Source: Candidatus Sericytochromatia bacterium
Lineage (GTDB): Bacteria; Cyanobacteriota; Sericytochromatia; UBA7694
Length of the DNA: 64,000 nt
Direction of reading: 5' to 3'
Assembly: GCA_037968875.1 (NCBI GenBank)
Contig: JBBKWI010000197.1
Location: 6,748-70,747 of the forward strand
Shown here: positions 4,527-64,000 of the stretch, in pieces
Numbering within the stretch: the first letter of the stretch is position 1
Layout: every line of letters starts with the position of its first letter
Position numbers and translations under genes: made by a program
Notes under the pieces: model-generated
Seen by the model: only the letters and a program-made list of their open reading frames with translations
The model's database searches: none
What the model was told of the DNA's origin: nothing

Positions 4527-5365
4527 TTTTGGGCTTGCTCAAAAAACTGGTTCATTAGGTGCATTGCTTCTGTCACGCGCGGCCCCGGCCGTGAGATCAG
4601 ATCGTCGTTGATAATCAAGACTTTGTTTTGCTTCACGGCTTGTAATTGATTAAAGGGGGCTTTGTTGAGATCAACACGTTTGGAAACAGACTGCGGGATC
4701 ACCAGGACTTGCGGGTTGTGTTTGAGCAAGCTTTCAAGGGAATAATGCAAAAATGGCGTCTTGCTCTGCACAATGTTTTTACCCCCACTTTTCTGGATCA
4801 GACTGCCAATAAAACTGGATTGACTGGCGCTCATCAAGGGACGATCCCAGACCAGATAAAAAACACGGGGAGCTTGAGCAGCAGGCCATTGCTTCAATTG
4901 CTTTTGCGCCGTTTGCATTTGCTGCACACGGGCCTTAGCCTGAGTGGATTTTTGGGTGAGTTGCCCCAGAATCAGCAATTGCTGTTCGATAGCCTCTGTA
5001 TTTGGCATATTGAGAGCCAAGACTGGAATTTTTAGGCGCTTGAGTGGGCTCAAAACCTGCTTCATCTCTGACGTTGCCAGGATCAAATCGGGCTTAAGCT
5101 TAAGAATTTTTTCTAAGTTGACTTCACCAAACTTGCCGACGCGGGTTTTACTTTGCGCTGCTTTAGGGTAATTACAGTCATGGGTAACGCCAACCAGAGC
5201 CGACTCAGCTCCAATGGCATAGATCATCTCAGTCGTAGCTGGAGACAGTGAAATAATTCGCTGGGGTTGCTGAATCTTTAGGGGACGCTGCCAGAAATCT
5301 TCCAAACTCTGGGCCGGCAGCAGCCAGCTAAACAAAAATAGAAAGGCCAAAAAAAGTCGCTTCAA
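4523..5365 (-). CDS. Periplasmic substrate-binding protein, class III (BtuF/FhuD-like, cobalamin or siderophore)
   Basis: Signal peptide. Motif RIISLSPATTEMIYAIGA...VGVTHDCNYP is typical of BtuF-like binding proteins. Confidence 0.6.
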   Translation of the reverse strand: MKRLFLAFLFLFSWLLPAQSLEDFWQRPLKIQQPQRIISLSPATTEMIYAIGAESALVGVTHDCNYPKAAQSKTRVGKFGEVNLEKILKLKPDLILATSEMKQVLSPLKRLKIPVLALNMPNTEAIEQQLLILGQLTQKSTQAKARVQQMQTAQKQLKQWPAAQAPRVFYLVWDRPLMSASQSSFIGSLIQKSGGKNIVQSKTPFLHYSLESLLKHNPQVLVIPQSVSKRVDLNKAPFNQLQAVKQNKVLIINDDLISRPGPRVTEAMHLMNQFFEQAQK

Positions 5366-5468: not shown

Positions 5469-7784
5469 CTAGAAATTACGAGCTTTGAGAACTTGTACCC
5501 GAGAGTTGCCTTTGTCTAAGACAAAAACTTCGCCATCATCACTGACAGCAATACTTTCAGGACCCCAGAAGTCCGTCGGACCTCTGCCTTTTGAACCAAA
5601 GGACTCAATAAACTCGCCCTGAGGTGAGAAAATTTGAATGCGGTGATTGAGGGTGTCAGCGACGTAGACACGGCCTTTGATATCAACAGTAATTCCGCGT
5701 GGAATACTAAACTCGCCCCCGCCAACGCCGCGCTTGCCAAAGTCCAAACGCGCAATACCCTGGCGATCCATCATTTGTACTCGCGGAATACCATAATCCA
5801 GGATGAACAAATTATCTTTGGAGTCTAAAGCAATTGCATAAGGGGTTTTAAACTCACCCGGACGTGTGCCTGGGCGACCAAATATTTTCATGACCTGACC
5901 ATTGGGATCCAGCACTTGAATGCGGCCATTTTCGGTGTCGGCGACATAGACTTCATCTTTAGAGGAGATCGCAATTCCGTAAGGGTTCGCAAACTCGCCC
6001 CGGTTTTTACCATGCGAGCCAAAAGAGCGAATAAAGCGGCCCGATTGGTCAAAAATAGCTACGCGGCTAGTGCCTGAGTCAACGACATAAATCTGCCCTT
6101 GTCGGCTCACGGTCACCGAGCAAGGAGCTTTTAGTGAATCTTGCTGGCTACCGGCACGTATCAAATACTGCCAATCACCCATTTTGTTAAAAACCTGAAT
6201 GCGCTGATTTTGAGTATCTGCAACAAAAATCAGTCCTTGATAAACAGCCAGTCCGCGCGGCTGGTAAAACTGCCCTTTGCCAGCACCGACCTGACCGATT
6301 TTATGCGAGAACTCTAATTGCAAAGAGGCTTTGTCGCCATCTGCTGATGCGGTCGAACGCGAATCAGAAGGACGTGAGGGAGCCGAACGGGCTCCCATTG
6401 AAGGCATAGCAGGTGGTTGAGGCGGCCCACCACCAGCAGGCGCATCTGATGTTGAAGAACGAATCGTGGTATTGGATGGAGCAAAATGCCCTGTTTTACG
6501 CATCGGGTTTAGAACCTGGGTGTTGTTTTCAGGAGCTACGGCCTGGGTGCGCCCAAAACTGTGTCGATCTATACCTGAGCGCGGATTACTTTGATAAGTA
6601 CTCGCAAGCTCAAGCAAACGATTCAAACGGTTTTTCAGCGAATTAATTTTTTCAGGTTTTTTGGTTGCTGCGGCATTACGCTCTGCCATATTCGTACGCA
6701 GCATCGGTCTCTTTAATGCGTCTTCCCGGTTATTATAAAGTTCATTTCGAGGAGGCTCTGGTGGCTTGGGAACAACCATCTGAGGTGTCGCAGGCCCTGT
6801 ATTTACAGGCGCATCACCTAGATTCAAACCGCAATAAGGGCAAAATTTAGCCCCCGAAAAAATCATGTTCTTTTTGTCACAAGGGCATGGAACCATACCT
6901 TCTGAGGTATCGTTAGCTCCTCCGCTGCCACTAGCACCAGACATAGTGCGCTTAATTTGGCGTAGCTCTTCAGAGATCTCACTGGCATTTTGATAACGAA
7001 AGTCCGGCAATTTCTGCAAGGCTTTCATCACGATCTTTTCCAAACGGGGATCCATATCAGCATTTACGCGAGTTGGGGGAACCGGATCTTCAGAGACAAT
7101 TTTTAAAATCGTTGCACCCAAATTACCACCATCAAAAGGCAGTTTGCTGGTATACAGCTCGTACATCATTGCACCCAAAGAGAAGATGTCCGCCCGGTGA
7201 TCCACGCCACGAGAGTCTTGCAATTGCTCTGGGGAAATATAACCCAAAGTGCCCAGCATGGTACCATCCTGGGTCATAGACATCATAGGATTGGTGGTGG
7301 ACATACGCGCAATGCCAAAATCAGTAATTTTGACGTCGCCTTTGGCTGTGATCGAAATATTATCGGGCTTGATATCCCGGTGAATAACTTTGCGCTCATG
7401 GGCATGTTGCATGCCTTCGCAGATTTGAATTAAAATATCAATTAATTCTTCATCTGAGAAGTCATGACCTTCTTCCATGTATTCCTTGAGGTTTTTACCC
7501 TCAATGAATTCCATGGCAATATAATGATTGCCGCTATCAGCGCCAAAATCATGAATTGTAACGACGTTGGGATGCGAAAGTCCACCTGCTGTTTGCGCCT
7601 CACGGTGAAAACGAGCAATAATCTCATCTGCGGCTTTAGCCAAAGAAGGATTAATTAAAAGCTCTTTTATCGCAACTGTACGATTAATTCTGACGTCCCT
7701 GGCCCGATAGACAACGCCCATGCCGCCCCGGCCAACTTCATCCAGAATTTCGTATTTCCCAAGTACTAAGCCTTTGTGTGCCAT
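5469..7784 (-). CDS. Ser/Thr protein kinase with C-terminal zinc ribbon and six NHL repeats (PknD-like, but with no TM segment)
   Basis: Hanks kinase motifs (GxGxxG, VAIK, HRDIKPDN, DFG). CPCDKK...CPYCG zinc ribbon. Repeated NHL units (G-F-PRG-VYVAD-N-RIQVF). Confidence 0.85.
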   Translation of the reverse strand: MAHKGLVLGKYEILDEVGRGGMGVVYRARDVRINRTVAIKELLINPSLAKAADEIIARFHREAQTAGGLSHPNVVTIHDFGADSGNHYIAMEFIEGKNLKEYMEEGHDFSDEELIDILIQICEGMQHAHERKVIHRDIKPDNISITAKGDVKITDFGIARMSTTNPMMSMTQDGTMLGTLGYISPEQLQDSRGVDHRADIFSLGAMMYELYTSKLPFDGGNLGATILKIVSEDPVPPTRVNADMDPRLEKIVMKALQKLPDFRYQNASEISEELRQIKRTMSGASGSGGANDTSEGMVPCPCDKKNMIFSGAKFCPYCGLNLGDAPVNTGPATPQMVVPKPPEPPRNELYNNREDALKRPMLRTNMAERNAAATKKPEKINSLKNRLNRLLELASTYQSNPRSGIDRHSFGRTQAVAPENNTQVLNPMRKTGHFAPSNTTIRSSTSDAPAGGGPPQPPAMPSMGARSAPSRPSDSRSTASADGDKASLQLEFSHKIGQVGAGKGQFYQPRGLAVYQGLIFVADTQNQRIQVFNKMGDWQYLIRAGSQQDSLKAPCSVTVSRQGQIYVVDSGTSRVAIFDQSGRFIRSFGSHGKNRGEFANPYGIAISSKDEVYVADTENGRIQVLDPNGQVMKIFGRPGTRPGEFKTPYAIALDSKDNLFILDYGIPRVQMMDRQGIARLDFGKRGVGGGEFSIPRGITVDIKGRVYVADTLNHRIQIFSPQGEFIESFGSKGRGPTDFWGPESIAVSDDGEVFVLDKGNSRVQVLKARNF

Positions 7785-9494: not shown

Positions 9495-10694
9495 CTATAG
9501 CCGGAAATTCAGTCCGCGCTGTAATTTGGGGTCGCCAACAGGCACCAGGTTTTTACCTTTAGCTTGCTGTTGGAACAAGACAATCAAGAATCCAGCTGCA
9601 ATGGCTACTGCAGCAACTTCAGCCAGACCAAAAGTAGGACCATGTGAATGGGCTTGAGGATGGTGTCCATAAGCAGGCATCACGATCCAATACAGGTCAA
9701 ACATATGAGCAAAGATAATCCACAAAGACATGAATAACATGCGGTTGGGATTGGTTTTATTGCGACGTTGAATCAAGCCAAACAAAGGGATTATGAAGTG
9801 AATCACAATTAAAGCTAAGGTGATTACATCCCAGCCGTTTTCCCAGCGATGCAGAAACCAGGGGGTTTCTTCAGGCAGGTTGGCGTACCAGATCAGCATG
9901 CCCTGAGAGAAAGCTGTATACGTCCAGAAAACGCAACCAGCAAACATGCCAAAGCCCAAGCTGTAATAGTGATGACCACTAATACCTTTGCCCATGTAAC
10001 CATTTTCATTCAACATGATCGTAGCAATTGAAACTACTCCCAGAGAAGCGACCAATGAACCAGCAAAGAAGTTCACACCAAACATGGTTGAGAACCAGTG
10101 CGGCTCTAAACTCATCAGAAAGTCAATTGACAATGCTGTGAGCGTTAAACCGAAGATAGGGATAAAAATCGCTGACAATTTGATATTTTTACTGGTCAGG
10201 GTCTGATCAGCCGTCTGATCTTGTTTAAATGAATTGCCCGTAAAGAGCTTATAAAATAAGATCCAAACCAACAGAATCACGACCAAACGAACCAGGAAAA
10301 AAGGCTGATTCAAATAAGCTGCTTTGCGCAGCAAAATGGGGTCATCCCCCATATTGGTCCACTCATAAAGATGAGAAAACCACATGCCCAGAACAGGCGG
10401 AATCGCAAACAAGGGTAAAAATAGAACACTCGAAGCGACCAATTCAAATACCCGTCGAATCGGTGTAGACCACACCGCTCCAGCAATGTATTCAATGGCT
10501 ACCATAAACAAAGCACAAATCCCGACACCTGCTACAAACATAAATAGCATGATGCTCACATATTGCGAACGAATCGGATCCATAGCAAAGGCAGCCGCTC
10601 CCAAAATCAGCCCAACGACCAGCATAATCCAGCCCGTTGAGGCAACGCTTCCGGGAAGGTCACGTTTTTTGTAGGTTACAGCGTGTGTACTCAT
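9495..10694 (-). CDS. actF: Alternative complex III subunit ActF (NrfD-like quinol-interacting membrane subunit)
   Basis: About 10 TM helices in a NrfD/PsrC-like fold. Position after actD/E in the operon. 4-bp overlap with the upstream gene. Confidence 0.6.
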   Translation of the reverse strand: MSTHAVTYKKRDLPGSVASTGWIMLVVGLILGAAAFAMDPIRSQYVSIMLFMFVAGVGICALFMVAIEYIAGAVWSTPIRRVFELVASSVLFLPLFAIPPVLGMWFSHLYEWTNMGDDPILLRKAAYLNQPFFLVRLVVILLVWILFYKLFTGNSFKQDQTADQTLTSKNIKLSAIFIPIFGLTLTALSIDFLMSLEPHWFSTMFGVNFFAGSLVASLGVVSIATIMLNENGYMGKGISGHHYYSLGFGMFAGCVFWTYTAFSQGMLIWYANLPEETPWFLHRWENGWDVITLALIVIHFIIPLFGLIQRRNKTNPNRMLFMSLWIIFAHMFDLYWIVMPAYGHHPQAHSHGPTFGLAEVAAVAIAAGFLIVLFQQQAKGKNLVPVGDPKLQRGLNFRL

Positions 10695-18421: not shown

Positions 18422-19531
18422 ATGCCCACCCAAATCTCATCCCGTCAGGAAGATTACTTCAGACTGAATACTCAGCTCTCCCTCTTGAGCAATCAGCAAA
18501 TCGCCAAACAGCTCAAGGCCAGCAGTCATACTCAGGGCTGGGGTTTGAATCACACGCTCGAGATTGACGGACAAGCGGTCTTTGCCAAACGGATCCCCCT
18601 GACCGCCCTGGAGCACGCGCGTTTGTTTGATACCCGCAATCATTTTCAGCTGCCGATGTACTATCACTATGGCGTGGGATCAGCAGGCTTTGGCGCTTTT
18701 CGAGAGCTGATCCCCCATATCAAAACCACAAATTGGGTCTTACAAGGCCACAGTCCCCATTTTCCACTGCTTTACCACTATCGCATCTTAGAGAGCAATG
18801 CTCCCTGGCAAAGCCCTTCAGCTGAATCATTGACCAGGCATCTGTGCTACTGGAACCACAGCAAGCGGATTGCTAGCTATTTGCAGGCCCGCGCAGAAGC
18901 ATCTTATGAAATGGTGCTTTTTTTGGAACACTGGCCCCATTCACTCTATAGCTGGTTTCAAGCCCATCCGGGTAAAAACATTAAATCCCTCTTTGACCAA
19001 AGTCAGCAGGCCCTGGCCTTTTTAAACCAGCAGGGGATCTTACATCTGGATGCCCATTTGGCCAATATTTTAACCAATGGGAAGCAGATCGCAGTCAGTG
19101 ACTTTGGCCTGGCTTTGGATCAGGGCTTTGCTCTGGCTAAAAACGAAAAAGAATTTTTTGAAAATCATCAATCTTATGATCAGGGCGAATTGATCTGCAG
19201 TTTGGATTTTTCATTACATCAGGAACTCGAAAACCGGCCTGACAAAGCAAAGCTCTTCAAACAATTAAATCTTGATCCAGAGAAGAGCTCACTGGCACAA
19301 ACCCAGCAATTATTACAAAAAATTGATCAGCTTCAGCTCAGCCCTGATCTGAAGGCATTGCTAAAACAATACCAGCAGCCACTGCTGATCATGGACGCAT
19401 TTTTTGAAACGCTCCGCAATAACCCTAAGAAAAATACATTTTTTGACGACTCCGGCTTGCATCAGGCCTTGTTAAGTAGCGCCAAGACAAGCCGCAAAAA
19501 AGCACCGAGAATTAAAAATCCCGATGCTTGA
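18422..19531 (+). CDS. Atypical protein-kinase-like protein (ePK/APH-like fold)
   Basis: G-W-G loop, VFAKRIP (putative beta3 Lys), catalytic-loop-like HLDAHLANIL (HxDxxxxN) and SDFGLA (DFG). Gln-rich C-terminus. Confidence 0.55.
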   Translation: MPTQISSRQEDYFRLNTQLSLLSNQQIAKQLKASSHTQGWGLNHTLEIDGQAVFAKRIPLTALEHARLFDTRNHFQLPMYYHYGVGSAGFGAFRELIPHIKTTNWVLQGHSPHFPLLYHYRILESNAPWQSPSAESLTRHLCYWNHSKRIASYLQARAEASYEMVLFLEHWPHSLYSWFQAHPGKNIKSLFDQSQQALAFLNQQGILHLDAHLANILTNGKQIAVSDFGLALDQGFALAKNEKEFFENHQSYDQGELICSLDFSLHQELENRPDKAKLFKQLNLDPEKSSLAQTQQLLQKIDQLQLSPDLKALLKQYQQPLLIMDAFFETLRNNPKKNTFFDDSGLHQALLSSAKTSRKKAPRIKNPDA

Positions 19532-21030: not shown

Positions 21031-21633
21031 GTGTCTTCAATGTCGTCCGATTTTTCAGCGTTGCAGTCGCTATTGCACTGGATGCAGCATTTTCCTCGCC
21101 CCTGGTTTGTAGCCGGAGGCTGGGCTATAGACGCATTTCTGATGCGTCTGACCCGTGAGCACCAAGACCTTGAGATAGCCATCTTTAGAGAAGATCAACT
21201 GGCATTGCAACAGCACCTGCAAGCCTGGCGCTGGCAAAAAATGGTCAAGCAAGAGCCGCAGCCCTGGCCCACAGATGAATATTTACTCTTACCGATTCAT
21301 GAGTTGCACGGTAGTCGGGGCCCAGATCGATTAGAAGTCTTGCTCAATGAGCGCTATGGGGACTATTGGGTTTTCCGGCGCAATTTTGCAGTCAAACGCC
21401 AGTTAAGAAGATGCTGGAAAATCTCTTCGATTAGCGGCTTCTTTTCAGATGGCCTACCGATACTCTCACCGGAAATTATCTTGCTCTATAAAGCCAAAGC
21501 CAATCGCGAAAAAGATGCCCAGGACTTTTTTAATATTCAAGCGGCACTCACGCCAGCAGCCAGAGAGTGGCTGCTAGAAGCAATTGCACTCTGTTACCCG
21601 GGGCACCCCTGGATTCAACATCTAGAAGACTAG
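21031..21633 (+). CDS. Nucleotidyltransferase of the aminoglycoside-2''-adenylyltransferase (ANT(2'')) family
   Basis: WFVAGGWAIDAFLMRLTREHQDLEIAIF closely parallels the LWIGGGWAIDARLGRVTRKHDDIDLTF core of ANT(2'')-Ia. Confidence 0.6.
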   Translation: MSSMSSDFSALQSLLHWMQHFPRPWFVAGGWAIDAFLMRLTREHQDLEIAIFREDQLALQQHLQAWRWQKMVKQEPQPWPTDEYLLLPIHELHGSRGPDRLEVLLNERYGDYWVFRRNFAVKRQLRRCWKISSISGFFSDGLPILSPEIILLYKAKANREKDAQDFFNIQAALTPAAREWLLEAIALCYPGHPWIQHLED

Positions 21634-22622
21634 GGAACTTTGATTTGATTGAGAATCCGTTCAATCAATGACTCTGTAGTTAACTCCTGAGCTTCCGCTT
21701 CGTAACTCAAGCTCAGGCGATGACGCAAAACATCCATAGCCAGAGCTTTGACATCCTCAGGAATCACAAAAGCACGCTTTTCTAAGAAAGCATGGACCCG
21801 TGCGGCATGTGCCAAATAAATAGAGGCCCGTGGCGAAGCCCCCGCGCGAATCAACTCGCCCAAATCTAAATTGTATTGGGCCGGAGTACGCGTGGCGTAC
21901 ACCAAATCGACAATATACTTCTGGATCTTGGGATCGACATAGACCTTACGCACCAGATCCCGTGCTTTTAAGATGTCTTCGGCATTGAGTACCGGCTCAG
22001 GCATACTGACTTTGGCAGACAATAAATGCTGCTGTAAGATTTTAAGCTCTTCGTCGAGGGTCGGGTAATCGACGCGCACCTTGAGCATAAAACGATCGAG
22101 CTGGGCTTCAGGCAAAGGGTAAGTGCCTTCTTGCTCCAATGGATTTTGAGTCGCCAACACCAAAAAAGGCGCTGACAAAGGAAAGGTTTTTTCACCGATC
22201 GTGACTTGACGCTCTTGCATTGCTTCTAATAAGGCACTTTGTACCTTAGGTGGGGCGCGGTTGATCTCATCAGCCAATAGAAAATTGGTAAAGACAGGGC
22301 CCGGCTTGATCTCAAACTGAGCGCTTTCAGGATTGTAGATCCGAGTGCCGATCACATCTGCAGGTAAGAGATCCGGGGTAAATTGAATCCGTTTAAATTT
22401 GGCCTGAATCGCATGAGACAGAGTACTAATAGACAGAGTTTTGGCCAGACCCGGCACACCCTCTAATAGAATATGTCCGTCTGCCAGCAAGGCGATTAGC
22501 AAACGTCTGAGCAAAGCATTTTGCCCAATAATCACATGGTGCATGCTCGTAATCAATTGCTCAAAGGCGGGCAAGACCTGTTCTATTTCTTCTTGCAGGG
22601 CCGAGATATGCTCAGAATTCAT
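21630..22622 (-). CDS. MoxR-family AAA+ ATPase
   Basis: LLEGVPGLAKT Walker A, DEINRAPPKVQSALLEAMQE, 330 aa. Convergent 4-bp overlap with the preceding gene. Confidence 0.85.
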   Translation of the reverse strand: MNSEHISALQEEIEQVLPAFEQLITSMHHVIIGQNALLRRLLIALLADGHILLEGVPGLAKTLSISTLSHAIQAKFKRIQFTPDLLPADVIGTRIYNPESAQFEIKPGPVFTNFLLADEINRAPPKVQSALLEAMQERQVTIGEKTFPLSAPFLVLATQNPLEQEGTYPLPEAQLDRFMLKVRVDYPTLDEELKILQQHLLSAKVSMPEPVLNAEDILKARDLVRKVYVDPKIQKYIVDLVYATRTPAQYNLDLGELIRAGASPRASIYLAHAARVHAFLEKRAFVIPEDVKALAMDVLRHRLSLSYEAEAQELTTESLIERILNQIKVP

Positions 22623-24844: not shown

Positions 24845-26173
24845 CTATGCTGAGTGAAATCGGCTGCGCAAGTCTATTTCTAGTGACCGCCATTCAGTAG
24901 CCGTTACAAAAATCATCTGCTTTAAACCTGGTACCAATAAGCGCTCATTGAGGGAATCATAGCTCAGAGCCTCTGCTCCAGGGAGCATAACAGACTCCAG
25001 AACGCGCTCTTGAGAAGTCAAAATCGTGATCATTAATTCCAGCGAACTTATCTCTATTTGAACCTGTTGAAGCTGAGCTCTGCGTATTGACACTACATAA
25101 AAGAGTAGAGCCGCCAACAACATAAATAGCTGCAAATTTAAAAACAATAGCGAAAAAACGGGGATGCGGAAAGCTGCAAAACCCAAAAATACGGTGGCAA
25201 TAGCCAAAGGTGAAAACACTTTTTTAAAATAATAGGCTTGAATAGGTTTTTTGGTACTTTCTCGTACTGGCAAAATAATACTGAGACCTTCTGCTGAGCG
25301 ATGAACCTGAATTCCATCGGCTAAACGCAGCCCAGCCGGAACATCAACAGGAGCCGCAGGCAAAACAGCCTCGACTAAACGGGCCGGATGACTGTCTTTT
25401 AAAGCACGCTCTGCCTGGGCTGCTGAGGCAAAACGATCTTCAGGAATCGGTGCCAATAAAAGCGTAAGCCAATCTTGCCAGCGTTGAGAGAGCCCTAATT
25501 GAACGAAATCAGGAACCAGCCGCTTGCGTGACAAGTTTGCCGGGTTTTGCCCCGTGAGCAAATGTAGAAGTGTCGTCCCCAGACTATATAAATCAGAAGC
25601 GGGCTCTGCCTGACCCGTGAGCTGCTCCGGTGCCATATAACCAAAGGTGCCGGCTATAGTCGAACCGCCCTGCGACTTAAGCGCTTGATTCATTGAACCA
25701 AAGTCAATTAAATAAATTTGCTGATCGCCCCCCATAATCACATTCGACGGCTTGATATCCCGGTGAATAACAGCTGGATTTAAATGATGTAGATCATCCA
25801 AAACGTCTAAGATCGCCAGAGCAATGGATTCAATTTCAGAATCCGTCGGTCGCCAACCGCAATCTAGCTTTTCTTGCAAAGACTGTCCGGGAATATACTC
25901 AGTTACCAGATAATAAATATCATCGGTCTCGCTAGAGACATGAGCAAAACGCACAAAGCGAGGCAGAGCCGGGTGGCTTAGGGTTGCTAAAAACTGTGCT
26001 TCACGCTCAAAGAGTTCAAGCTGTTTCCAATTGGCACTTTGCGAAAGACGCTGACTTTTGAGCACCACCTGCTCAGAGCTCGTCAGATCACGGGCCAGCC
26101 AGGTTTGGCGGCCGGAGCTAATATTGAGCTCACGAATCAACTCATAGTCGTTAAGAATATCTTGCTCTGGCAT
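24845..26173 (-). CDS. Ser/Thr protein kinase with two C-terminal TM helices and a C-terminal domain
   Basis: VLK, HRDIKPSN, DFG and APE motifs. Hydrophobic helices near residues 300-360. Confidence 0.8.
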   Translation of the reverse strand: MPEQDILNDYELIRELNISSGRQTWLARDLTSSEQVVLKSQRLSQSANWKQLELFEREAQFLATLSHPALPRFVRFAHVSSETDDIYYLVTEYIPGQSLQEKLDCGWRPTDSEIESIALAILDVLDDLHHLNPAVIHRDIKPSNVIMGGDQQIYLIDFGSMNQALKSQGGSTIAGTFGYMAPEQLTGQAEPASDLYSLGTTLLHLLTGQNPANLSRKRLVPDFVQLGLSQRWQDWLTLLLAPIPEDRFASAAQAERALKDSHPARLVEAVLPAAPVDVPAGLRLADGIQVHRSAEGLSIILPVRESTKKPIQAYYFKKVFSPLAIATVFLGFAAFRIPVFSLLFLNLQLFMLLAALLFYVVSIRRAQLQQVQIEISSLELMITILTSQERVLESVMLPGAEALSYDSLNERLLVPGLKQMIFVTATEWRSLEIDLRSRFHSA

Positions 26174-37800: not shown

Positions 37801-38808
37801 ATGCGTATCCAAAAGATCTCACTCTATCTCTTATCATCACTGACGCTCCTGACTGCTTGCGGTGGCGGAAGCGATTTAACAATGGATCTTAGCGCATCAA
37901 TCCCATCTAGTCCCCCCGTAAGCAGCACAGCCAGCTCTGAGCTCAAAGCCGCTCTGCCTAAAATTTTACTGGGACTTGAAGAAATCAAGCAAGACATTAA
38001 ATCCCTGGGTTCTTCAGGCGCTGTAACCAGCAGCCGTTCGACTTCCTCAACAAGCAAACCCACTAGCAGCCGTAGTACAAGCAAAACACCCACCAGTACC
38101 AGCCGTTCAAGCAGCAGCACCCCCAGCAAAACAACAAGCACCCCTAGCCGTGCATCAAGCCCTGCTCCTGCCCCAAAACCCCAACAACCGTCAGGCACCG
38201 CTGAGCTAAAAAGTATTCTGGCAGCACTCAACAGTACACCTGCACTGGAAGCCGAAATCGAAAAAGCTGAAGGTAAGATTGGCGATCCCAGCTACCCGAT
38301 CAATACTGTGAAATTAAAAATGTTCACCCAGAAACCTGGCACTGTCAAAATCGACATCATTTTCTCTAGCAAAGACAAATCATCAGGCACCAAAATCCTG
38401 TATGAAGCAGGTAGCCCCAAAGCCAAGGTTCGCCCCGGAGGCGCACTTAGCTTTATGACCGCCGATCTGGAGAAAACCGACGACCGCCTGACTTCAACCA
38501 ATGGATTTCCCCTCGATGATCTGGACTTCTTTGGTGCTATCAAACGCCTCAGCAATGGTTATGAAGCCGAGCTGATCGGAAAAACGACGATGAATGGCAA
38601 AACCCTACATATCATTAAGATCAAAACCACAGGCACCAATACAATGGATTCACGGATTGATTATGAATTAATGGGCTATGAACCAGACACCTACAAAATT
38701 CGTCTTTGGGAACTCTATGCCGGTGAGAAAGAGCCTTTCCTGCGTCTGACCATGCCCAAACTTGAGTTTTTAAGCAGCCATTCTGATAGCAAAGCCATGA
38801 AACTTTAA
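37801..38808 (+). CDS. Lipoprotein with Ser/Thr/Pro-rich linker and conserved C-terminal domain (paralogue A)
   Basis: Lipobox LTAC. SSRSTSSTSKPTSSRSTSKTPTS low-complexity linker. C-terminal domain shared with 38926..39969. Confidence 0.6.
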   Translation: MRIQKISLYLLSSLTLLTACGGGSDLTMDLSASIPSSPPVSSTASSELKAALPKILLGLEEIKQDIKSLGSSGAVTSSRSTSSTSKPTSSRSTSKTPTSTSRSSSSTPSKTTSTPSRASSPAPAPKPQQPSGTAELKSILAALNSTPALEAEIEKAEGKIGDPSYPINTVKLKMFTQKPGTVKIDIIFSSKDKSSGTKILYEAGSPKAKVRPGGALSFMTADLEKTDDRLTSTNGFPLDDLDFFGAIKRLSNGYEAELIGKTTMNGKTLHIIKIKTTGTNTMDSRIDYELMGYEPDTYKIRLWELYAGEKEPFLRLTMPKLEFLSSHSDSKAMKL

Positions 38809-38925: not shown

Positions 38926-39969
38926 ATGAAAAAACGTTCTTTTAAAACTTTGGCTTTAACGGTGATGAGCAGCGCACTATTATTGAGTGCTTGTGGTAGC
39001 GGCAATGACTTAGCTGGCGATCTGGCCGGCTCTTTGGCCTCTTTAAACACAGATACCAGCTTACCTGCCACCGTCACTTCATCCGCTGACAGCGAGCTTT
39101 CAGCCGCAATCCCCAAGATCCTCAAAGGACTTGAAGACATTAAAAACGAAATTCGCGCATTGGATATTCGCAACATCAGCGATGATGACGATGCCCCCCG
39201 CAGCACTTCTAGCAGCACAGCAGCCACTTCAACACGCAGTTCTTCTAGCACCAAAACACCTACTACTTCAACCCGCAGCTCTTCTAGCACCAAAACACCC
39301 ACTTCAACCCGCAGCTCTTCCAGTACTACAACAGCTAAGCCAGCAGCTCCTAGCGCAGCTGAAAAAGGTGCCGCTGAGCTCAAAGCTCTGGTCGCCAAGG
39401 TTCAGTCAGCTCCTTTTGTCCAGCTTTCTGCTGAAAAAGATGAACGCAATCTAGATACGGGCAAAGTTTCTTTTAATAAACTTGATCTCTACTCGAAGCT
39501 CCCCAACGTGGTTCGAATTAATATTAAAGAGTCCAGCGCTGGTTCTGCCGGAGTTTCTGCTCTCTATACCTCTGGTGAAGGCACCAAAGTCCAGGTCAAA
39601 AAACTCTTTATTAAATTAGATTTGGATAAAACCGATGACCGTTTGGTTTCTAATAATAAATACGGCCCCGATGATATCGATCTCTTTGGGGTTATGAAGC
39701 GGATTGCCCAGCCCAATATCAGCGCAGAGCTGATTGGTAAAACCACCTTTGCTGGAAAAACCATCAATATCCTCAAGCTAACAACTTCAGGAACCCACCC
39801 AATCGACTCCCGCATTAGCCACGAATACATTGGCTATGAGCCAGATACTTACGCTTTCCGTCTCTGGGAAATCTATGATAGCGCGTCTGCCAAAGACCCT
39901 TACTATCGCATGAGCATCACTCAGATAGCTTTCCCAGCTTCTTTGCCAGCGAGCACATTCAAGCTCTAA
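38926..39969 (+). CDS. Lipoprotein with Ser/Thr/Pro-rich linker and conserved C-terminal domain (paralogue B)
   Basis: Lipobox LSAC. N-terminal ...AIPKIL.GLE.IK motif and C-terminal ELIGKTT..GKT..I.K..T.G....DSRI..E..GYEPDTY..RLWE.Y, both aligning to paralogue A. Confidence 0.6.
   Translation: MKKRSFKTLALTVMSSALLLSACGSGNDLAGDLAGSLASLNTDTSLPATVTSSADSELSAAIPKILKGLEDIKNEIRALDIRNISDDDDAPRSTSSSTAATSTRSSSSTKTPTTSTRSSSSTKTPTSTRSSSSTTTAKPAAPSAAEKGAAELKALVAKVQSAPFVQLSAEKDERNLDTGKVSFNKLDLYSKLPNVVRINIKESSAGSAGVSALYTSGEGTKVQVKKLFIKLDLDKTDDRLVSNNKYGPDDIDLFGVMKRIAQPNISAELIGKTTFAGKTINILKLTTSGTHPIDSRISHEYIGYEPDTYAFRLWEIYDSASAKDPYYRMSITQIAFPASLPASTFKL
39232..39330 (+). repeat. Intragenic imperfect tandem repeat (36-39 nt units, about 2.7 copies) encoding STRSSSSTKTPT(T)
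   Basis: Direct reading: tcaacacgcagttcttctagcaccaaaacacctactact / tcaacccgcagctcttctagcaccaaaacacccact / tcaacccgcagctcttccagtact. Confidence 0.6.
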
Positions 39970-50105: not shown

Positions 50106-51884
50106 TTAGAGCCCTTTGAGTTTGAGATAAGTCTCCAAATAGGCTTTGTATTCGTCAGCCAACGAGCTGCTATGCGACTGTAATAGGCCATCCAATTGCT
50201 GACGTGCCTGCTCAGCCGTGACTTTGCCTGTAAGCACTGAGGTCAGTAAAGTTACCACCTTGGCGTCTTTGATATTATTGAGATCCTGATTCAAAATCTC
50301 TTGAAAAGACTTCTCTAAGACATCGCTTTTCTCTGTGCCCGTGACCGGATCCGTATAGTTAATCGTCAGCTTAAACTGACCGCTGCCGAGCGTCGATTCG
50401 CCGTCCGTTTTGAAGCCTTCCAGAAAATACTGCGAGGTATTCGAAGAAAAGTGAATCGGCTGGACTTCACTGGCCACTTGCGAAGATTGCTCTGCCGCAG
50501 AATGTGTCCGTTCTAAACCAGCAGGATAGTCCAGGCGAAAGCGGACATCACGGGCTGCGATATCGACCAAAGAGAGAAAACGTTCTCCAAAAGCACGTGT
50601 GGCGTCTTTCTCAGTGATCACCGAGAAATAAGTCCCTTTACCTGCTTCGGTCAGGGTATTCAAAAATCCTTCATTAAAACGCTCTCCAAAGCCCAGGCCT
50701 GAGAAATAGATCCCTTCGAGGTCATTAATCCGTGCATTTTCAGAAATCACGCTAGCATCGACGCTGCCCTGATTGGCAAAGGCATCCGTCAACATAATCA
50801 CGCGATTGGTTTTCTTGGGGTCAAAAATCTTCTGGGCTTGCTCATAACCGGTTTTGAGGCCCGCATTTAAATTGGTGCCCCCCTCGGTTTTGAGAGCATC
50901 GATCGCTTTATTCCAGGCAGAAGCATCCCCTGAATAAGCCAGAGCATCAATCAAGATACGCGTGCCCGTCGAAAAAGTCACCAGACTGACCACATCGCCC
51001 GCTTTCAATTGTTGGGGCAAGGCTTTTAAGCCTTTTTTGGCAATCTCCAATAAGCTATTAGCGCTGCCATTTTCGCTCAGAGCAACAGAACCATTATTCA
51101 TTGAGCCAGAAACATCCAGGACCAAGGTTAAAGCCAAATTCCGGCGCTGTGACAGGCTCGTTTCCGGCCCGACTACATGCACGCCCAGATCATAAGCTGT
51201 TTGATTGTCTTGACCCGGAGTCTGGTGCTGCCAGAGCCCCATCGATACTTTAAAGGTTTCTTTTGTTTCTAAGCCTTGTTGTGCAAAGGGCTCAAAACTC
51301 AAGAACTCCCAGGGACGCACCCAGGAAGCCTGCGGCAGCGAAGGAGAAGCTTTGCTCAAAGCGAATTTGGTTTGCTCAACCCCGGCCGTACTGGCTGAGT
51401 CGTCATAAGAAAAATAGAAAAATTGCTGATTCTGCTGGACTTCAGCTGAAGCCGAAACCGTAGGAGTCGGTTCTGAACTGGCGCTAGCCGAGGCTTGAGG
51501 TTTCGGCTGTGCCGTAGCTTCTGCCGTAGGCTGCGGCTCGGGTTGGCTAATTATTGCACTACTATCGTCGGCTGCAGTCGGTGCTGGTGCGCCTGCGGCA
51601 ATATCGGTTCCGGCACTATAGCCGCCGCCAGTAGTCTGATTCACGCCGGCAACTTCACCCTCCATATTTCGGCTTTTATCAGCTCGCTGCATCGCTGAAG
51701 TCGGTAGATTCAAACCCAGATTAACCCCATCCAAGGGCTTGGGACCTTTGGGTTGCGGTGTAATCCCGAGACTAGAGCTAGGGCGAATATCTGAGGGATT
51801 CACATTAGTGCCACCAATATCACTACAAGCTGTATTTAAACTTAAGGCGAGCAAGCCCACCACAGTCCAGGTTATTTTCTTCAT
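50106..51884 (-). CDS. Secreted/lipoprotein von Willebrand factor A (VWA) domain protein with low-complexity N-terminal region
   Basis: Signal peptide (..LSLNTAC). A/P/T/S-rich region of about 150 aa. VWA MIDAS motif LVLDVSGSMNN...TNL...MLTDAFAN. Confidence 0.7.
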   Translation of the reverse strand: MKKITWTVVGLLALSLNTACSDIGGTNVNPSDIRPSSSLGITPQPKGPKPLDGVNLGLNLPTSAMQRADKSRNMEGEVAGVNQTTGGGYSAGTDIAAGAPAPTAADDSSAIISQPEPQPTAEATAQPKPQASASASSEPTPTVSASAEVQQNQQFFYFSYDDSASTAGVEQTKFALSKASPSLPQASWVRPWEFLSFEPFAQQGLETKETFKVSMGLWQHQTPGQDNQTAYDLGVHVVGPETSLSQRRNLALTLVLDVSGSMNNGSVALSENGSANSLLEIAKKGLKALPQQLKAGDVVSLVTFSTGTRILIDALAYSGDASAWNKAIDALKTEGGTNLNAGLKTGYEQAQKIFDPKKTNRVIMLTDAFANQGSVDASVISENARINDLEGIYFSGLGFGERFNEGFLNTLTEAGKGTYFSVITEKDATRAFGERFLSLVDIAARDVRFRLDYPAGLERTHSAAEQSSQVASEVQPIHFSSNTSQYFLEGFKTDGESTLGSGQFKLTINYTDPVTGTEKSDVLEKSFQEILNQDLNNIKDAKVVTLLTSVLTGKVTAEQARQQLDGLLQSHSSSLADEYKAYLETYLKLKGL

Positions 51885-53185: not shown

Positions 53186-54265
53186 TTAACGAAGCGCTTC
53201 TGGGGGCAATGGAGCCGGTCCCGGCTCAATATCTTCGCCAAAATCTAGTTTGCCAGTATACAGCAGCGGCCGATTGAGATTTAATATCGCTCCGCTGACT
53301 GCATCGATCTCAACAAAGCCACTGGCATGACGTTCACCCGCATTAGAGGATCTCGTCAAAAAATTCACCGTAACAAAATAGCGACTGCTTTGTTCCTGGT
53401 TTTGGTTGAGCTGAATCTGCCACTGGGCGTCACTCGGAATCTGGGTGATGATTTGCTGATTGGGGTAGGCCCGCTCAGGGTAAACCGGATAACCCGGATT
53501 ACTGGCAGTGCTTTCAAGGGCCGCTTTGGCTTTGCGTTGAGCCGCATCGCTGTCCAGGCTCACTTTACTCAGATCTAAATTGGGCTCCCCCCAGACCATG
53601 CGATGTACACGAGTCTCTTTGTCAGTTAAATAAACCAGCAAACTTTCTTTGCGCTTGTCTGAAGTCCAACGGAATAAATAATTGAGCTTGATTTGAGCGG
53701 GTTTGCCATTGTCATCAGGCAAGAAAAAGTCGTGTTCAGGACTGGCCGAGGCTCCCAAAAAAGCCTGACTTTCAGACAGTCTCGCGCTAGCGTCCCACTC
53801 TTTCATTAAGGGCTGTGCCGCTTGCTGATAAGCCGTTAGCAGAGATTGGGCTTTACTGAGCGGGAAAATACTTTCTTCGGCAAATTGTAAGACATATTGA
53901 TCAAAAGTGCCCCAGCCATAGCCGGGCATCATCAAACGCTCAGCACTGCTACCAGGAATACCTGATGCAGACGCATCTTGCCCAGCACGCTTCGGGGCTG
54001 AGATCGCGCCACCAGCTGTCGGGACAGTTGCAGCAGCCGGAGCAGAGCCTGTTACATTATTCCCATCAGCGCCTGATTCGGCTGTTTGACCGAATAAGTC
54101 CACTGAGAGACTGCGCTTACTCAGGGCGTTGGCAAACAAACCCTTGCCCGTTTGCTCGCCGTTGTTTACAGAAGGTGAAGCCGAGGGCTGAGTTGAAGGG
54201 CCACCGGGTAGATTAACGCCCTGGCAGGCCGTCAAAAAAGTAAGACTCAAGAGTAGACGTTTCAT
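53186..54265 (-). CDS. Lipoprotein of unknown function (paralogue 2 of tandem pair)
   Basis: Lipobox LTAC. Shares FDQYV.QFAEE, SEWDASARL.ES, RVHRMVWG.PN and NPGYPVYPE blocks with the upstream paralogue. Confidence 0.5.
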   Translation of the reverse strand: MKRLLLSLTFLTACQGVNLPGGPSTQPSASPSVNNGEQTGKGLFANALSKRSLSVDLFGQTAESGADGNNVTGSAPAAATVPTAGGAISAPKRAGQDASASGIPGSSAERLMMPGYGWGTFDQYVLQFAEESIFPLSKAQSLLTAYQQAAQPLMKEWDASARLSESQAFLGASASPEHDFFLPDDNGKPAQIKLNYLFRWTSDKRKESLLVYLTDKETRVHRMVWGEPNLDLSKVSLDSDAAQRKAKAALESTASNPGYPVYPERAYPNQQIITQIPSDAQWQIQLNQNQEQSSRYFVTVNFLTRSSNAGERHASGFVEIDAVSGAILNLNRPLLYTGKLDFGEDIEPGPAPLPPEALR

Positions 54266-55452
54266 TCGCGATCTCCAATCTGAGGAGCGGCCCCTCCATC
54301 CGTAGCAGAGGCAGAGTCCATCAGCTCAGGGGGAGGCCCCTCAGGACCTGGATAGCCCGGATAGGAAACGCCGCCACCATCATACTGACGGTAAATCACC
54401 GGACGGTTTAAGCTTTTGATTTCGCCCGTAATGGCATCGATCTCAATCGAACCACTCAGGTATTGATAAGGCGGGGCTATCGGGCGCGCAGGTGAAACAG
54501 CAACTCCGACAGGAGCATCCATCAATGCAGGCTCAACACCCAAAGGCATAGGATGCGGAACAGGAATCGGCAACGGCACGCCATCATTTCCCTGGCGAAA
54601 ATTAAAGTGCAAGAAATAACGCAATTGATCGCGGCTCTGTTGATTTAAACTCAGGTTCCAACTCAGCTCCTGTGGGAGTTCGTAGACCACCTGAGCACTG
54701 GTATCATTGGCCTCCGGGTAAACTGGATAGCCAGGGGATTGCGCACGGCTAGCAAAGGCTTTGCGGGCAATCTCCAAAGCCCGATCCGAATCAATTTTAA
54801 CCCGTGCGATTTCAATATTAGGTGAGCCCCAAACCATACGATGCACACGAATTTCCTTTTCAAGCACATAGATATTTAAAGTTTCTTTTTTAGAGCTTGA
54901 GGCAAAACGATAAACATAGAGTGGACGCAAACGTAGGGGTTTGTTTTCGTCCTGGCCAGGTAAATATATATACTCGTCGTCAGTGCCATTGACTTGTGCT
55001 CTACTCTCCAGCAGTCGGGCAGAAGCATCCCACTCGCTCAAAATCGGCTTGACGGACTGATTATAGACCTGCAATAAACTCGTGCCCTTAGGAGCTCCAT
55101 AGAGATTCTCTTCAGCAAATTGAATCACATATTGGTTAAAGTCATGCCCACCATAATAATAACCTGGCGCAATTGCTGGGCGAGAGACCGCAATATCGGC
55201 ACTGATAGCAGTGGCGACTTGAGCAAGACCAAAAGCAGGACTCTCAGCTAAAGCAGCAACAGGGACCATTTGACCATTGATCCGTGCCAAAGCCAGAGGG
55301 CGTTTTTGTAAGGCTGAAGCCAGAACCACGTGTTGACTTTGAATTGAGCTTGTTTGTGCGGCTTGTTGAATAGATCCATTGGGAATCGGGCCTGAGCAAG
55401 CCACCAATAAACTACTACAAAGCAAAGCAGAACATATGATGCGATAGGACAT
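54262..55452 (-). CDS. Lipoprotein of unknown function (paralogue 1 of tandem pair)
   Basis: Lipobox LVAC. Same conserved blocks as paralogue 2. 4-bp overlap with it. Pro/Gly-rich C-terminus. Confidence 0.5.
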   Translation of the reverse strand: MSYRIICSALLCSSLLVACSGPIPNGSIQQAAQTSSIQSQHVVLASALQKRPLALARINGQMVPVAALAESPAFGLAQVATAISADIAVSRPAIAPGYYYGGHDFNQYVIQFAEENLYGAPKGTSLLQVYNQSVKPILSEWDASARLLESRAQVNGTDDEYIYLPGQDENKPLRLRPLYVYRFASSSKKETLNIYVLEKEIRVHRMVWGSPNIEIARVKIDSDRALEIARKAFASRAQSPGYPVYPEANDTSAQVVYELPQELSWNLSLNQQSRDQLRYFLHFNFRQGNDGVPLPIPVPHPMPLGVEPALMDAPVGVAVSPARPIAPPYQYLSGSIEIDAITGEIKSLNRPVIYRQYDGGGVSYPGYPGPEGPPPELMDSASATDGGAAPQIGDRE

Positions 55453-61327: not shown

Positions 61328-61555
61328 TTATCGCTTTCGGGCTTTGAGTTTGAGATAGAGGGTCTCGACTTTGGTACGCGCCCAGGGCGTTTTACGCAAA
61401 AATACCAGACTGGACTTAATGCTGGGATCCTCTTGAAAACAACGAACCCGAATATACGTCCCCAGCTTAGGCCAGCCCAGATCGTCTACCAATTCGCTTA
61501 AAATCTGCTCAAGCTTGACGCCTTGCAAGGGGTTATTGGAATGTGAATTTTCCAT
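61328..61555 (-). CDS. Small conserved hypothetical protein (75 aa)
   Basis: ORF immediately upstream of yaeQ, separated by 1 nt. Helical, basic C-terminus. Confidence 0.4.
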   Translation of the reverse strand: MENSHSNNPLQGVKLEQILSELVDDLGWPKLGTYIRVRCFQEDPSIKSSLVFLRKTPWARTKVETLYLKLKARKR

Positions 61556-61692
61556 AGTGGATCCTTTTCAATCATTAACGGCTATATATCAAGCTCAGCT
61601 TAACAAGTCTGTACACAGAATAACAAGCACAAACCCAGACCAGTAAATCCATCCAATAAGCCTAGCACTTGCATAATAAAACGCTGGGGTGG

Positions 61693-61699
61693 GTATATA
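61693..61699 (+). promoter_or_regulatory. TATATAA promoter-like element
   Basis: tatataa lies about 33 bp upstream of the ATG at 61732. Confidence 0.25.
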
Positions 61700-61731
61700 A
61701 AAAGTAACAAAAAGACAATGATCGGATTTTT

Positions 61732-64000
61732 ATGAACTTCAATGTCAGCTCCACTCAAGCGAAAGCCTCCGCTCCACTTACGTCAGCCTCTACTAGCCTC
61801 ACTTCAGCCACTGTGAACACAACCAGCCCAGAACCATCTGATCCCCAAACGCCAGCTGACTAGAATTCCCAATATCAAGGCCAGGCTCGACAATTTGCAA
61901 GCAAAGAGCTTACAGGGCAAGTTTCATTTGATAAGCCCTCAGGTAACCAGCACACGGATTTAGAACCCACTTCACCCCAGACGCGCTTTGAAACCTCTGA
62001 GATCAATATTCAATTAAAACCGCTTCCCCTAACCAGAATACCTACCGAGGGGAAAGCTGATGACCGTTTTTCAGAGAGCCGGCGCGATTTTTTAGTGAGC
62101 TTACAATCCGAAATTTCAGATTTATCGCAGGCTGCATCAGCATTAGAGCAAAAAATTGGCCGGAGAAATAACTCTTCTGATCAAGCTCCAGTGTTAAGAA
62201 GAGGGCATAAAAAAGCCAAAGAAGAGTTGGCCAGTTTACAAAAACAGATACAAACGAGAACCGAGCATGCATCTACAATTCAAAACATCCTAAAAGTCCC
62301 ACACATGGTCGAAGTTTATAAAAACTTCGACGTTGACACCCAAATAAGCACTGAAGACAGAAAAAAAGGAGTTTCACCCGAGGCTGCCCACGCTTTGGAT
62401 GTCATTAATTATTATAGCGTCTCTGAATCAGAAAGACCCAAAGGGATAGCTGCGCCCGGATTACAACTTGATCAGGGAATGGATCTTGTCTATACAAAAC
62501 TTATTTCAAACTTTGGGGAGCCTGATAAAACACAGGCTGCACGGACGCTTTTCCAGCAATTACAAAACACTCCAGAGATGCCGCTGTCTGCTGAGCAAGA
62601 GCAGTTGTTAACAGACTTTGGCATGCTCCCTAATGCGGAAGGCCAATTGATCAATTACAAAACCAACGCATTGGTAAGCGCGCAAGATCTCGCTGATTTC
62701 GTGCAAATCATCGACCACCAGGCTGCTAATTTTTTATCCTCAGAAAATTCTGAAGCATTGGGTCAATTCGTGGGCAACACCGGTCGTTCTTATGGCCTGA
62801 ACCAAACAATAGCAAACCCTATGGCAAGTATTGCTCAGGGCATGGGGGCTTTGAATAGTGCAAGCAATGTAATTGAATCTACGAAAACTGCCCTGACGCA
62901 TTTAAACAATTCAGAGGCTGACTTAAACGCTAGTTTGGCTGCTGCCAGAGCAGAAAGAGCAGCTTTACAAGCCGAAATGAACAAGGCTCGAGAAATATTA
63001 AGCCCGCTACAGGATGAAAAAATTCAGGTTGAGTCAGAAATCGAAACCACACAAGGTTTTATCGATGGCTTGAATGGCCTCGAAAGCGCAGAAGATATTT
63101 CAACATTTATAAGCAATGCCAGTCCTGAACAATTAAACTGGATGCAACGGCAGGGACTGACGATCCAGCAAGACAACGGACAAATAAGCTTGCAGCTAAA
63201 TGGTGAAAGCATTGATTCTGTTCAGGCGCTGGATTTACTAAAAACAAAAGCGATTGAACAGCGCAGCTTACTCTCAGATCGGCTGAACAATCTCGCCGCC
63301 CAAATTACAGCAGCTCAAACAGCTGTTGATGGTGTACAAGACAAACTGCAAAACTTAGAAGTCATCGAAGCAAACCTAAACAATGGCAAGATAACTCATG
63401 CCGAAGCATTGTCTGCTTACCAGACTCAGATCAGCGAATTGCAACGGATCAAAAATGATCCTGAAGCCTGGGCCAGTTTAACCACTGAGCAACAGGCTGA
63501 AGCCGATGCCATGTTAGCTGGATATGAAGAAACCGTTGCGTCAGCTCAGGCTGTACAAACAGAAGCGGCTCAAGAATTGGCGACTATCGCTACTGTAAAG
63601 TCCGAAGCAAAAACATTCATCGCTGAAGCCAATCAGGTGATTGCTGAGGCGCAGACCACTCTGACTAAAGGGCGGGCGACATTGCGCGAGATGGACAAAC
63701 TGATCGTGACTCTGGATAAGCAGATCGATGTTGCCCAAAAACAGAGAGCTAAAGCGCTCGCAGAAGCCATTGAGAAGGCCAACGATCTAGGTTCTCGTCT
63801 GGTATTAACGCCGAAGCCTTCGCCGATAGATGTCGGTCAATTGATCGATCAGTGGCAAGATATCTTAGCAGAATCTCAGGAAACCTATAATCGTATGAGC
63901 GCTGCCACCAGTAATGCCCAAAGCATCGAGCGTACTCGCTTGCAACAGTTTTCCGATCAGCTCAGAGAAATGCATCAATATACGCAAGACTATCTACAAG
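61732..64000 (+). other. Large coiled-coil/STP-rich protein ORF (>755 codons, runs off the window) with an in-frame TAG at 61861-61863 after codon 43
   Basis: ATG 61732 opens a 43-codon ORF that ends at a TAG. The same frame then stays open from 61864 to 64000 with no ATG until about 62314. The translated sequence is one continuous low-complexity-to-coiled-coil protein. Confidence 0.5.

Follow-up and report, generated by a model that had tools for sequence, protein, structure and literature searches.

The window analyzed here, a 64,000-nucleotide (64-kb) stretch of DNA from Candidatus Sericytochromatia bacterium, ends in a gene for a coiled-coil protein that is interrupted by one in-frame stop codon. 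The open reading frame (ORF) lies on the plus strand and begins with the ATG at 61732-61734, which is followed by 43 sense codons and then, as codon 44, by a TAG at 61861-61863. Beyond this stop, the same frame stays open for 712 sense codons, up to base 63999 at the window edge, and about 25 more codons are missing beyond the edge, judging from P0001, the closest relative of the protein. The original prediction, made from the letters alone, had described an ATG, 43 codons, a TAG and more than 710 open codons, and our count bears this layout out. Our analyses suggest that, in the population sequenced, the gene has probably been turned into a pseudogene or null allele by a single, unprogrammed nonsense codon. 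The inactivation would be very recent, since the 712-codon body carries no second lesion. A nonsense mutation producing a pseudogene was among the options first raised for this locus, and it fits the continuous homologues, the single stop and the absence of a recoding signal. The gene has the following parts:

61732..61860, plus strand: ancestral start ATG 61732 and 43 codons, MNFNVSSTQAKASAPLTSASTSLTSATVNTTSPEPSDPQTPAD; Ser/Thr/Ala/Pro-rich disordered N-terminal segment
61861..61863, plus strand: premature in-frame TAG, codon 44, context GAC TAG AAT; non-conserved linker
61864..64000, plus strand: rest of the gene, 712 codons, running off the window; 45% identity to P0001
61870..62007, plus strand: conserved block QYQGQARQFASKELTGQVSFD...TSPQTRF, with the near-invariant Ser57 (61900-61902) and the invariant Phe66 (61927-61929)
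62095..62097, plus strand: first canonical in-frame start after the TAG, GTG codon 122; no support as an internal start

Judged by sequence similarity, the locus is a member of an unannotated helical-bundle family of Sericytochromatia and 'Melainabacteria'. The closest relative, P0001 (750 amino acids), is the hypothetical protein CVV27_05970 of Candidatus Melainabacteria bacterium HGW-Melainabacteria (GCA_002839735.1, contig PGYP01000117.1), and is 45% identical over 717 aligned columns covering residues 47-756 (E 4e-155). It was the only relative found in a 90%-identity cluster collection by word-based protein searches, which were run with the single sequence and with a ten-sequence alignment. 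A HMMER scan of 1.84 billion cluster representatives yielded 25 relatives, and the eight best profile matches (P0002-P0009, E 2e-87 to 6e-30) all come from metagenomes. The family proteins are 650-930 amino acids long. Members other than P0001 are 22-32% identical to the window ORF, and one member lies on a contig of a Candidatus Sericytochromatia metagenome-assembled genome (MAG; CJ05B_2.89). Common to the family are a disordered N-terminus, a VSF motif, a domain marked by DVIDYYS/GMDLVY/GQLINY, an NDPEAWAALS motif and a C-terminal LIxEWQxILKE motif. The window ORF shares with the other members the similarity over the full length, the distance from the start to the invariant Phe of the VSF motif and the promoter-like box, but not the uninterrupted frame. 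Because of the TAG at codon 44, the window copy is therefore a disrupted family member.

In an AlphaFold2 model of the part after the TAG (predicted local distance difference test score 76), the first 66 residues are disordered and lead into long helices, between which two small domains are inserted. No model reached its curated cut-off, either in Pfam for the window ORF or in NCBIfam for the family members. The family profile gave only weak coiled-coil matches against the PDB sequences, and Foldseek returned no match to the predicted fold with E <1e-3. Sequence matches between the helical family and SMC or other coiled coils score well short of the family cut-offs. The likeness to designed three-helix bundles, spectrin repeats, ClyA/AhlB-type alpha-pore-forming toxins and SMC is generic to coiled coils and does not speak for homology or shared function. 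For the effector or scaffold role suggested at first, the fold and sequence searches offered nothing beyond generic helical bundles.

All nine homologues P0001-P0009 are uninterrupted in the ten-sequence alignment and open through the N-terminal region. The comparison proposed at the outset, for a sense codon at the site of the TAG, thus found nine of nine homologues open, and P0001 has CAA (Gln) at the ungapped equivalent position. All nine begin with an ATG upstream of the conserved block, and none starts downstream of the TAG, which would have spoken for an internal start. The view that the two parts of the frame read as a single protein, in which a disordered N-terminus rich in Ser, Thr and Pro flows into long helices, agrees with these uninterrupted homologues and their upstream ATG starts.

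Three independent lines of evidence place the ancestral start at ATG 61732, namely the promoter-like box, the distance to the invariant Phe and the 43 codons themselves. Counted from ATG 61732, the invariant Phe has number 66, as it does in P0001; the values across the nine homologues are 66, 68, 74, 67, 69, 68, 70, 61 and 63. This ATG is also the sole canonical start in the segment before the TAG, because the nearest upstream in-frame stop is at 61705-61707. The 51 stop-free codons that precede the TAG are unremarkable on their own (a chance of about 0.09 by our own estimate), and it is the homologue evidence, not the open length alone, that makes this segment meaningful. The similarity of the 43 codons is the weakest of the three lines. 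Their codon-usage score is 0.02 in frame versus -0.39 and -0.71 in the other frames; it exceeds 99.5% of off-frame windows, yet is low for a coding region. Against composition-preserving shuffles, the 43-residue peptide resembles P0006 (p 0.0045), P0002 (p 0.012) and P0003 (p 0.044), with a p of 0.013 for the sum, and an example of this likeness is NVSSTQAKAS in the window and NVSFSRAKNS in P0006. An N-terminus joined by a frameshift from another frame was considered and rejected; stops abound in both other frames.

The remaining line of evidence for the start codon is the box upstream of it. The TATATAA box that had been noted before the ATG is present at 61694-61700, and it is part of a larger element:

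61669..61674, plus strand: -35-like hexamer TTGCAT, 16 nucleotides upstream of the GGG of the box; putative function
61690..61703, plus strand: promoter-like box TGGGTATATAAAAA (GGG plus TATA-type -10), identical at 14/14 positions to the box of locus L001

The motif TGGGTATA occurs upstream of all nine family genes with readable upstream DNA, in the form TGGGTATG at L094. The consensus of the box is TGGGTAT(A/G), with GGGTATA as its core, or GGGTATG in L094. All nine promoters have the GGG followed by TATAnn, and the A at position 2 of the hexamer is conserved while the T at position 6 is not. When eight promoters were aligned on the GGG, a (T/C)TGnnT element was found 16 nucleotides upstream of it in seven, and that of L010 is shifted. 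The GGG lies 41 nucleotides from the ATG in the window and 39, 40, 47, 66, 70 or 76 nucleotides from it in the homologues; seven of the eight homologous genes fall within this range of 39-76 nucleotides, and the outlier, L001, has 228. The box is the sole intergenic GGGTATA of the 64-kb window.

The architecture resembles the J-Box, GGGaAtacT, which is the extended -10 element of promoters that depend on SigJ, a cyanobacterial group-3 sigma factor, in Nostoc (PMC6495340). In both cases, GGG directly precedes an A/T-rich -10 hexamer whose second position is A, the -35 region is weak and A/T-rich, and the box is kept across distant genomes. The differences are that the family hexamer is TATA(T/A/G)N, not aAtacT, and its final T is not conserved, that the family box is accompanied by a TTGnnT -35-like element, and that the hosts are non-photosynthetic Sericytochromatia. 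With the spacing taken from PMC6495340, transcription is predicted to start near 61706. The comparison suggests that a promoter of the group-3 sigma-factor type may also operate in the non-photosynthetic Sericytochromatia.

Elsewhere, the box was located at about 4680-4716 in L001, 9914-9943 in L003, 9933-9962 in L004, and 5941-5970 and 8068-8097 in L009, and the upstream regions of L010, L012 and L094 also carry the promoter-like motif. The family genomes bearing the box share only 22-46% protein identity. In L001 (4703-4930), where the box precedes the annotated ATG by 228 nucleotides, a mini-ORF of three codons, ATGAATTTCTAA (MNF*), is found out of frame at 4901, and its first three residues match the MNF start of the window protein. 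The 5' region of L001 may be rearranged or carry an insertion.

In the account that we favour, a TTGnnT-N16-GGGTATA promoter at 61669-61703 would drive transcription, and translation would start at ATG 61732. A C-to-T change in a CAG (Gln) codon is a plausible origin of the TAG at codon 44. We infer that the TAG is really present in the DNA and that translation terminates there. Ribosomes would thus release a 43-residue peptide, and the body of 712 or more codons would go untranslated except for a trace of basal readthrough. Six neighbour proteins from the same 70.7-kb contig are represented in the protein collection, and no product of the coiled-coil locus is among them; the missing record would fit a locus annotated as a pseudogene, without a coding-sequence translation. 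The locus is much like the single-nonsense ('internal stop') pseudogenes and null alleles known from the annotation of bacterial genomes and MAGs, with an early in-frame stop in an otherwise intact ORF, continuous homologues, no recoding signal and no protein record even though the neighbours have one. There is no difference in kind. The particulars here are that the family is unannotated and that the lesion is too recent for a second defect.

The sequence that follows the TAG is conserved as protein. Similarity to P0001 starts at residue 47 in both proteins, three codons past the TAG, and the codon-position identity to P0001 over codons 47-69 is 0.57/0.87/0.43, the pattern expected of a constrained coding sequence. 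The codon-usage score after the TAG is 0.20 in frame versus -0.46 and -1.20 out of frame. Since in-frame canonical starts do exist after the TAG (GTG 62095, codon 122; GTG 62191; TTG 62227; ATG 62305), the gene might work as an N-terminally truncated protein made from one of them, and most of the predicted fold would then be kept, as the structured helical part of the model begins at about residue 67 after the TAG. We regard this as quite unlikely. The invariant Phe66 and the near-invariant Ser57 lie upstream of every candidate start and would be lost, and a search with just the 77 residues from the TAG to GTG 62095 finds residues 47-89 of P0001 (E 2.6e-5). In the nine homologues, the start is an upstream ATG whose distances to Phe66 and to the promoter box are fixed. 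Neither GTG 62095 (within 20 nucleotides) nor GTG 62191 is preceded by a Shine-Dalgarno-like sequence, and all candidate starts are at least 231 nucleotides from the stop, which we judge too far for termination-reinitiation coupling. No restart codon of any kind occurs within 138 nucleotides 3' of the TAG, the nearest near-cognate codon being an ATC 138 nucleotides downstream. The first in-frame ATG past the TAG, ATG 62305 at codon 192, is 148 codons beyond it, in keeping with the gap of about 150 codons noted earlier. The in-frame GTG that the original prediction placed near 62092 does exist, but its actual position is 62095, and its proposed use as an internal start is contradicted by the conserved residues, including Phe66, that lie between the TAG and this codon.

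An altogether different explanation for the in-frame TAG would be that the organism reads it as a sense codon. Apart from the in-frame TAG itself, nothing points this way, and the probability is close to nil. TAG terminates nine of the 44 ORFs of at least 200 codons in the window, and several of the TAG-ended ORFs stop a few residues past their last Pfam domain: a His kinase domain reaches residue 468 of 469, the domain of an NHL Ser/Thr kinase about residue 763 of 771, and a MoxR ATPase domain residue 323 of 330. The genetic code is thus standard, because TAG ends long ORFs at domain ends, and the earlier statement that TAG is a genuine stop elsewhere in the window, with the NHL kinase as an example, is confirmed.

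Within a standard code, a full-length protein of about 780 amino acids could still be made, perhaps at a deliberately low level, if the UAG were decoded through pyrrolysine, a suppressor tRNA or readthrough, be it programmed or leaky. The frame is perfectly kept from one side of the stop to the other, the body downstream is intact, and the base after the stop is A, a context that favours amber suppression in E. coli. We nonetheless consider decoding of the UAG very improbable. None of the homologues has a stop in the region, and the linker that holds the site is disordered and not conserved. No stable RNA structure that could stimulate readthrough was found 3' of the TAG: for 61855-61975, the minimum free energy is -20.1 kcal/mol and the mean of the shuffled sequences is -21.3 (z +0.39). 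A search against Rfam gave no match, no tRNA gene was found in the 64-kb window, and TAG is an ordinary terminator of other genes, as described above. To our knowledge, pyrrolysine has not been reported in Cyanobacteriota. The locus resembles pyrrolysine and programmed UAG readthrough genes in having an in-frame UAG inside a conserved reading frame; it differs from them in that the UAG is not conserved and is located not at a functional site but in a linker of variable sequence, and in that neither a downstream structure nor, within the 64-kb window, decoding machinery was seen. The programmed readthrough contemplated in the original prediction is therefore not supported. A related proposal, in which codon 44 is decoded at some frequency by a natural amber suppressor tRNA or by context-dependent leaky termination and so acts as a translational throttle, seems to us just as remote. 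If this UAG were indeed decoded, it would be a rare bacterial case of UAG readthrough and the first description of recoding in the non-photosynthetic lineages of the cyanobacteria, and no finding here points that way. Phase variation, another of the earlier options, is likewise unsupported, because there is no repeat tract at the lesion; no tandem repeats with a minimum score of 30 were detected in 61500-62300, and the lesion is a stop of the substitution type, not a frameshift.

The other possibility to be weighed against a recent nonsense mutation is that the TAG is absent from the DNA of the organism, being a base-call, assembly or strain-consensus artefact, and that the organism carries an intact gene in which codon 44 is a sense codon, for instance CAG. 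Like the mutation, such a sequencing error, which had also been suggested, fits the continuous homologues and the single lesion. There is exactly one lesion, it is a single-base distance from several sense codons, and the remaining architecture is all intact. Furthermore, the source is almost certainly a MAG contig, and because the lineage is uncultured, the sequence represents a population consensus. On the other side, the remaining genes of the 64-kb window show no apparent interruption, which gives no indication that the assembly is error-prone in general, and substitution errors are rare in short-read consensus sequences. We consider an artefact unlikely.

Several observations weigh against a recent inactivating mutation, or at least temper it. 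The fully intact body is expected of a recent lesion, but it is equally expected of a gene that is still expressed. A true mutation and a base-call or strain-consensus error are separable by the reads alone. The collections searched hold no orthologue closer than 45%, and the ancestral codon is thus not directly readable; a pattern scan (A1) over genome and metagenome contigs for a closer orthologue found nothing, and another (A4) recovered only one distant Sericytochromatia locus, L006. On the 5' side of the TAG, the first 46 codons have no similarity to P0001, with a codon-position identity of 0.22/0.37/0.30, and the similarity of the upstream codons to other members is only modest (p 0.004-0.04). 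The conservation of codon positions, which had been expected to help in judging both sides of the TAG, is accordingly seen relative to P0001 on the 3' side but not on the 5' side. Finally, no obvious Shine-Dalgarno sequence precedes ATG 61732, while L001, L003 and L004 have one.

The genomic context is consistent with a gene that has become dispensable. The window copy has the VF530 and YaeQ genes as neighbours, and synteny with related genomes breaks there. Two loci reached through close relatives of the VF530 protein of the window, L007 (76% nucleotide identity) and L014 (78%), are collinear with it over UbiA, DapF, an Smr-domain protein (MutS2-like), YaeQ and VF530. Similarity to the window ends at 61632 for L007 and at 61566 for L014. 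Since it ends upstream of the promoter, the gene and its promoter together lie at a lineage-specific synteny break. No homologue of the gene was found next to VF530 in L007 or L014, the content of L014 on that side not having been examined. In L007, a Urate_ox_N gene and an FlgE/F/G-like gene take its place next to VF530. The coordinates of the break are:

61566-61632 in the window: synteny break
9816-10000 in L007: synteny break
1-1936 in L014: synteny break

The family gene of four other lineages is situated between a divergently transcribed metK and a co-directional cluster. This cluster consists of an ORF of 59-68 amino acids, a PrkA Ser kinase, Memo, a STAND NTPase (NACHT/MalT-like) and a TPR protein, the last two being seen in L003, L004 and L094, where the locus extends that far. 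L009 has a tandem paralogue of the family gene, 969 amino acids long. The clusters are located as follows:

10001-17780 in L003: family gene cluster
10001-19002 in L004: family gene cluster
6001-14043 in L009: family gene cluster
8001-15795 in L094: family gene cluster

The window copy lies outside this metK-PrkA context. These arrangements fit a copy that moved away from the metK-PrkA context and then acquired a nonsense mutation, as a dispensable gene beginning to decay.

Other genes of the window were recorded in passing. The PcrA helicase is 100% identical to an NCBI protein, and its closest named relatives belong to Candidatus Sericytochromatia MAGs, which places the window in this non-photosynthetic cyanobacterial lineage. 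An ORF of 804 amino acids on the minus strand (41344-43758) has a match in Pfam to the shoulder domain of the Major Vault Protein (E 2.7e-28) and a weaker one to a vault repeat, which makes it a vault-protein-like gene in a bacterial (Sericytochromatia) genome. Eukaryote-like Ser/Thr kinases are abundant (5469-7784, 18422-19531 and 24845-26173), and one of them is fused to an NHL propeller. A MoxR AAA gene is found at 21630-22622 and a VWA gene at 50106-51884. ORFs of 330-400 amino acids without a Pfam match are located at 9495-10694, 37801-38808, 38926-39969, 44196-45173, 53186-54265 and 54262-55452.

To conclude, our work describes a disrupted member of an unannotated protein family. A disruption by a single stop is an ordinary kind of feature, and what is new here is the disrupted member itself. 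For annotation, the appropriate entry is a disrupted gene (internal stop, pseudogene or null allele) with its true start at ATG 61732. Neither an entry as a shorter protein from an internal GTG or ATG nor a reading of the locus as evidence of recoding is warranted. Beyond the annotation, the locus offers modest leads on the biology of these lineages: a lineage-restricted, unannotated helical-bundle family, a conserved J-Box-like GGG-extended -10 box upstream of its genes, and the recurrent position of the family gene at the head of a PrkA-Memo-STAND-TPR cluster.

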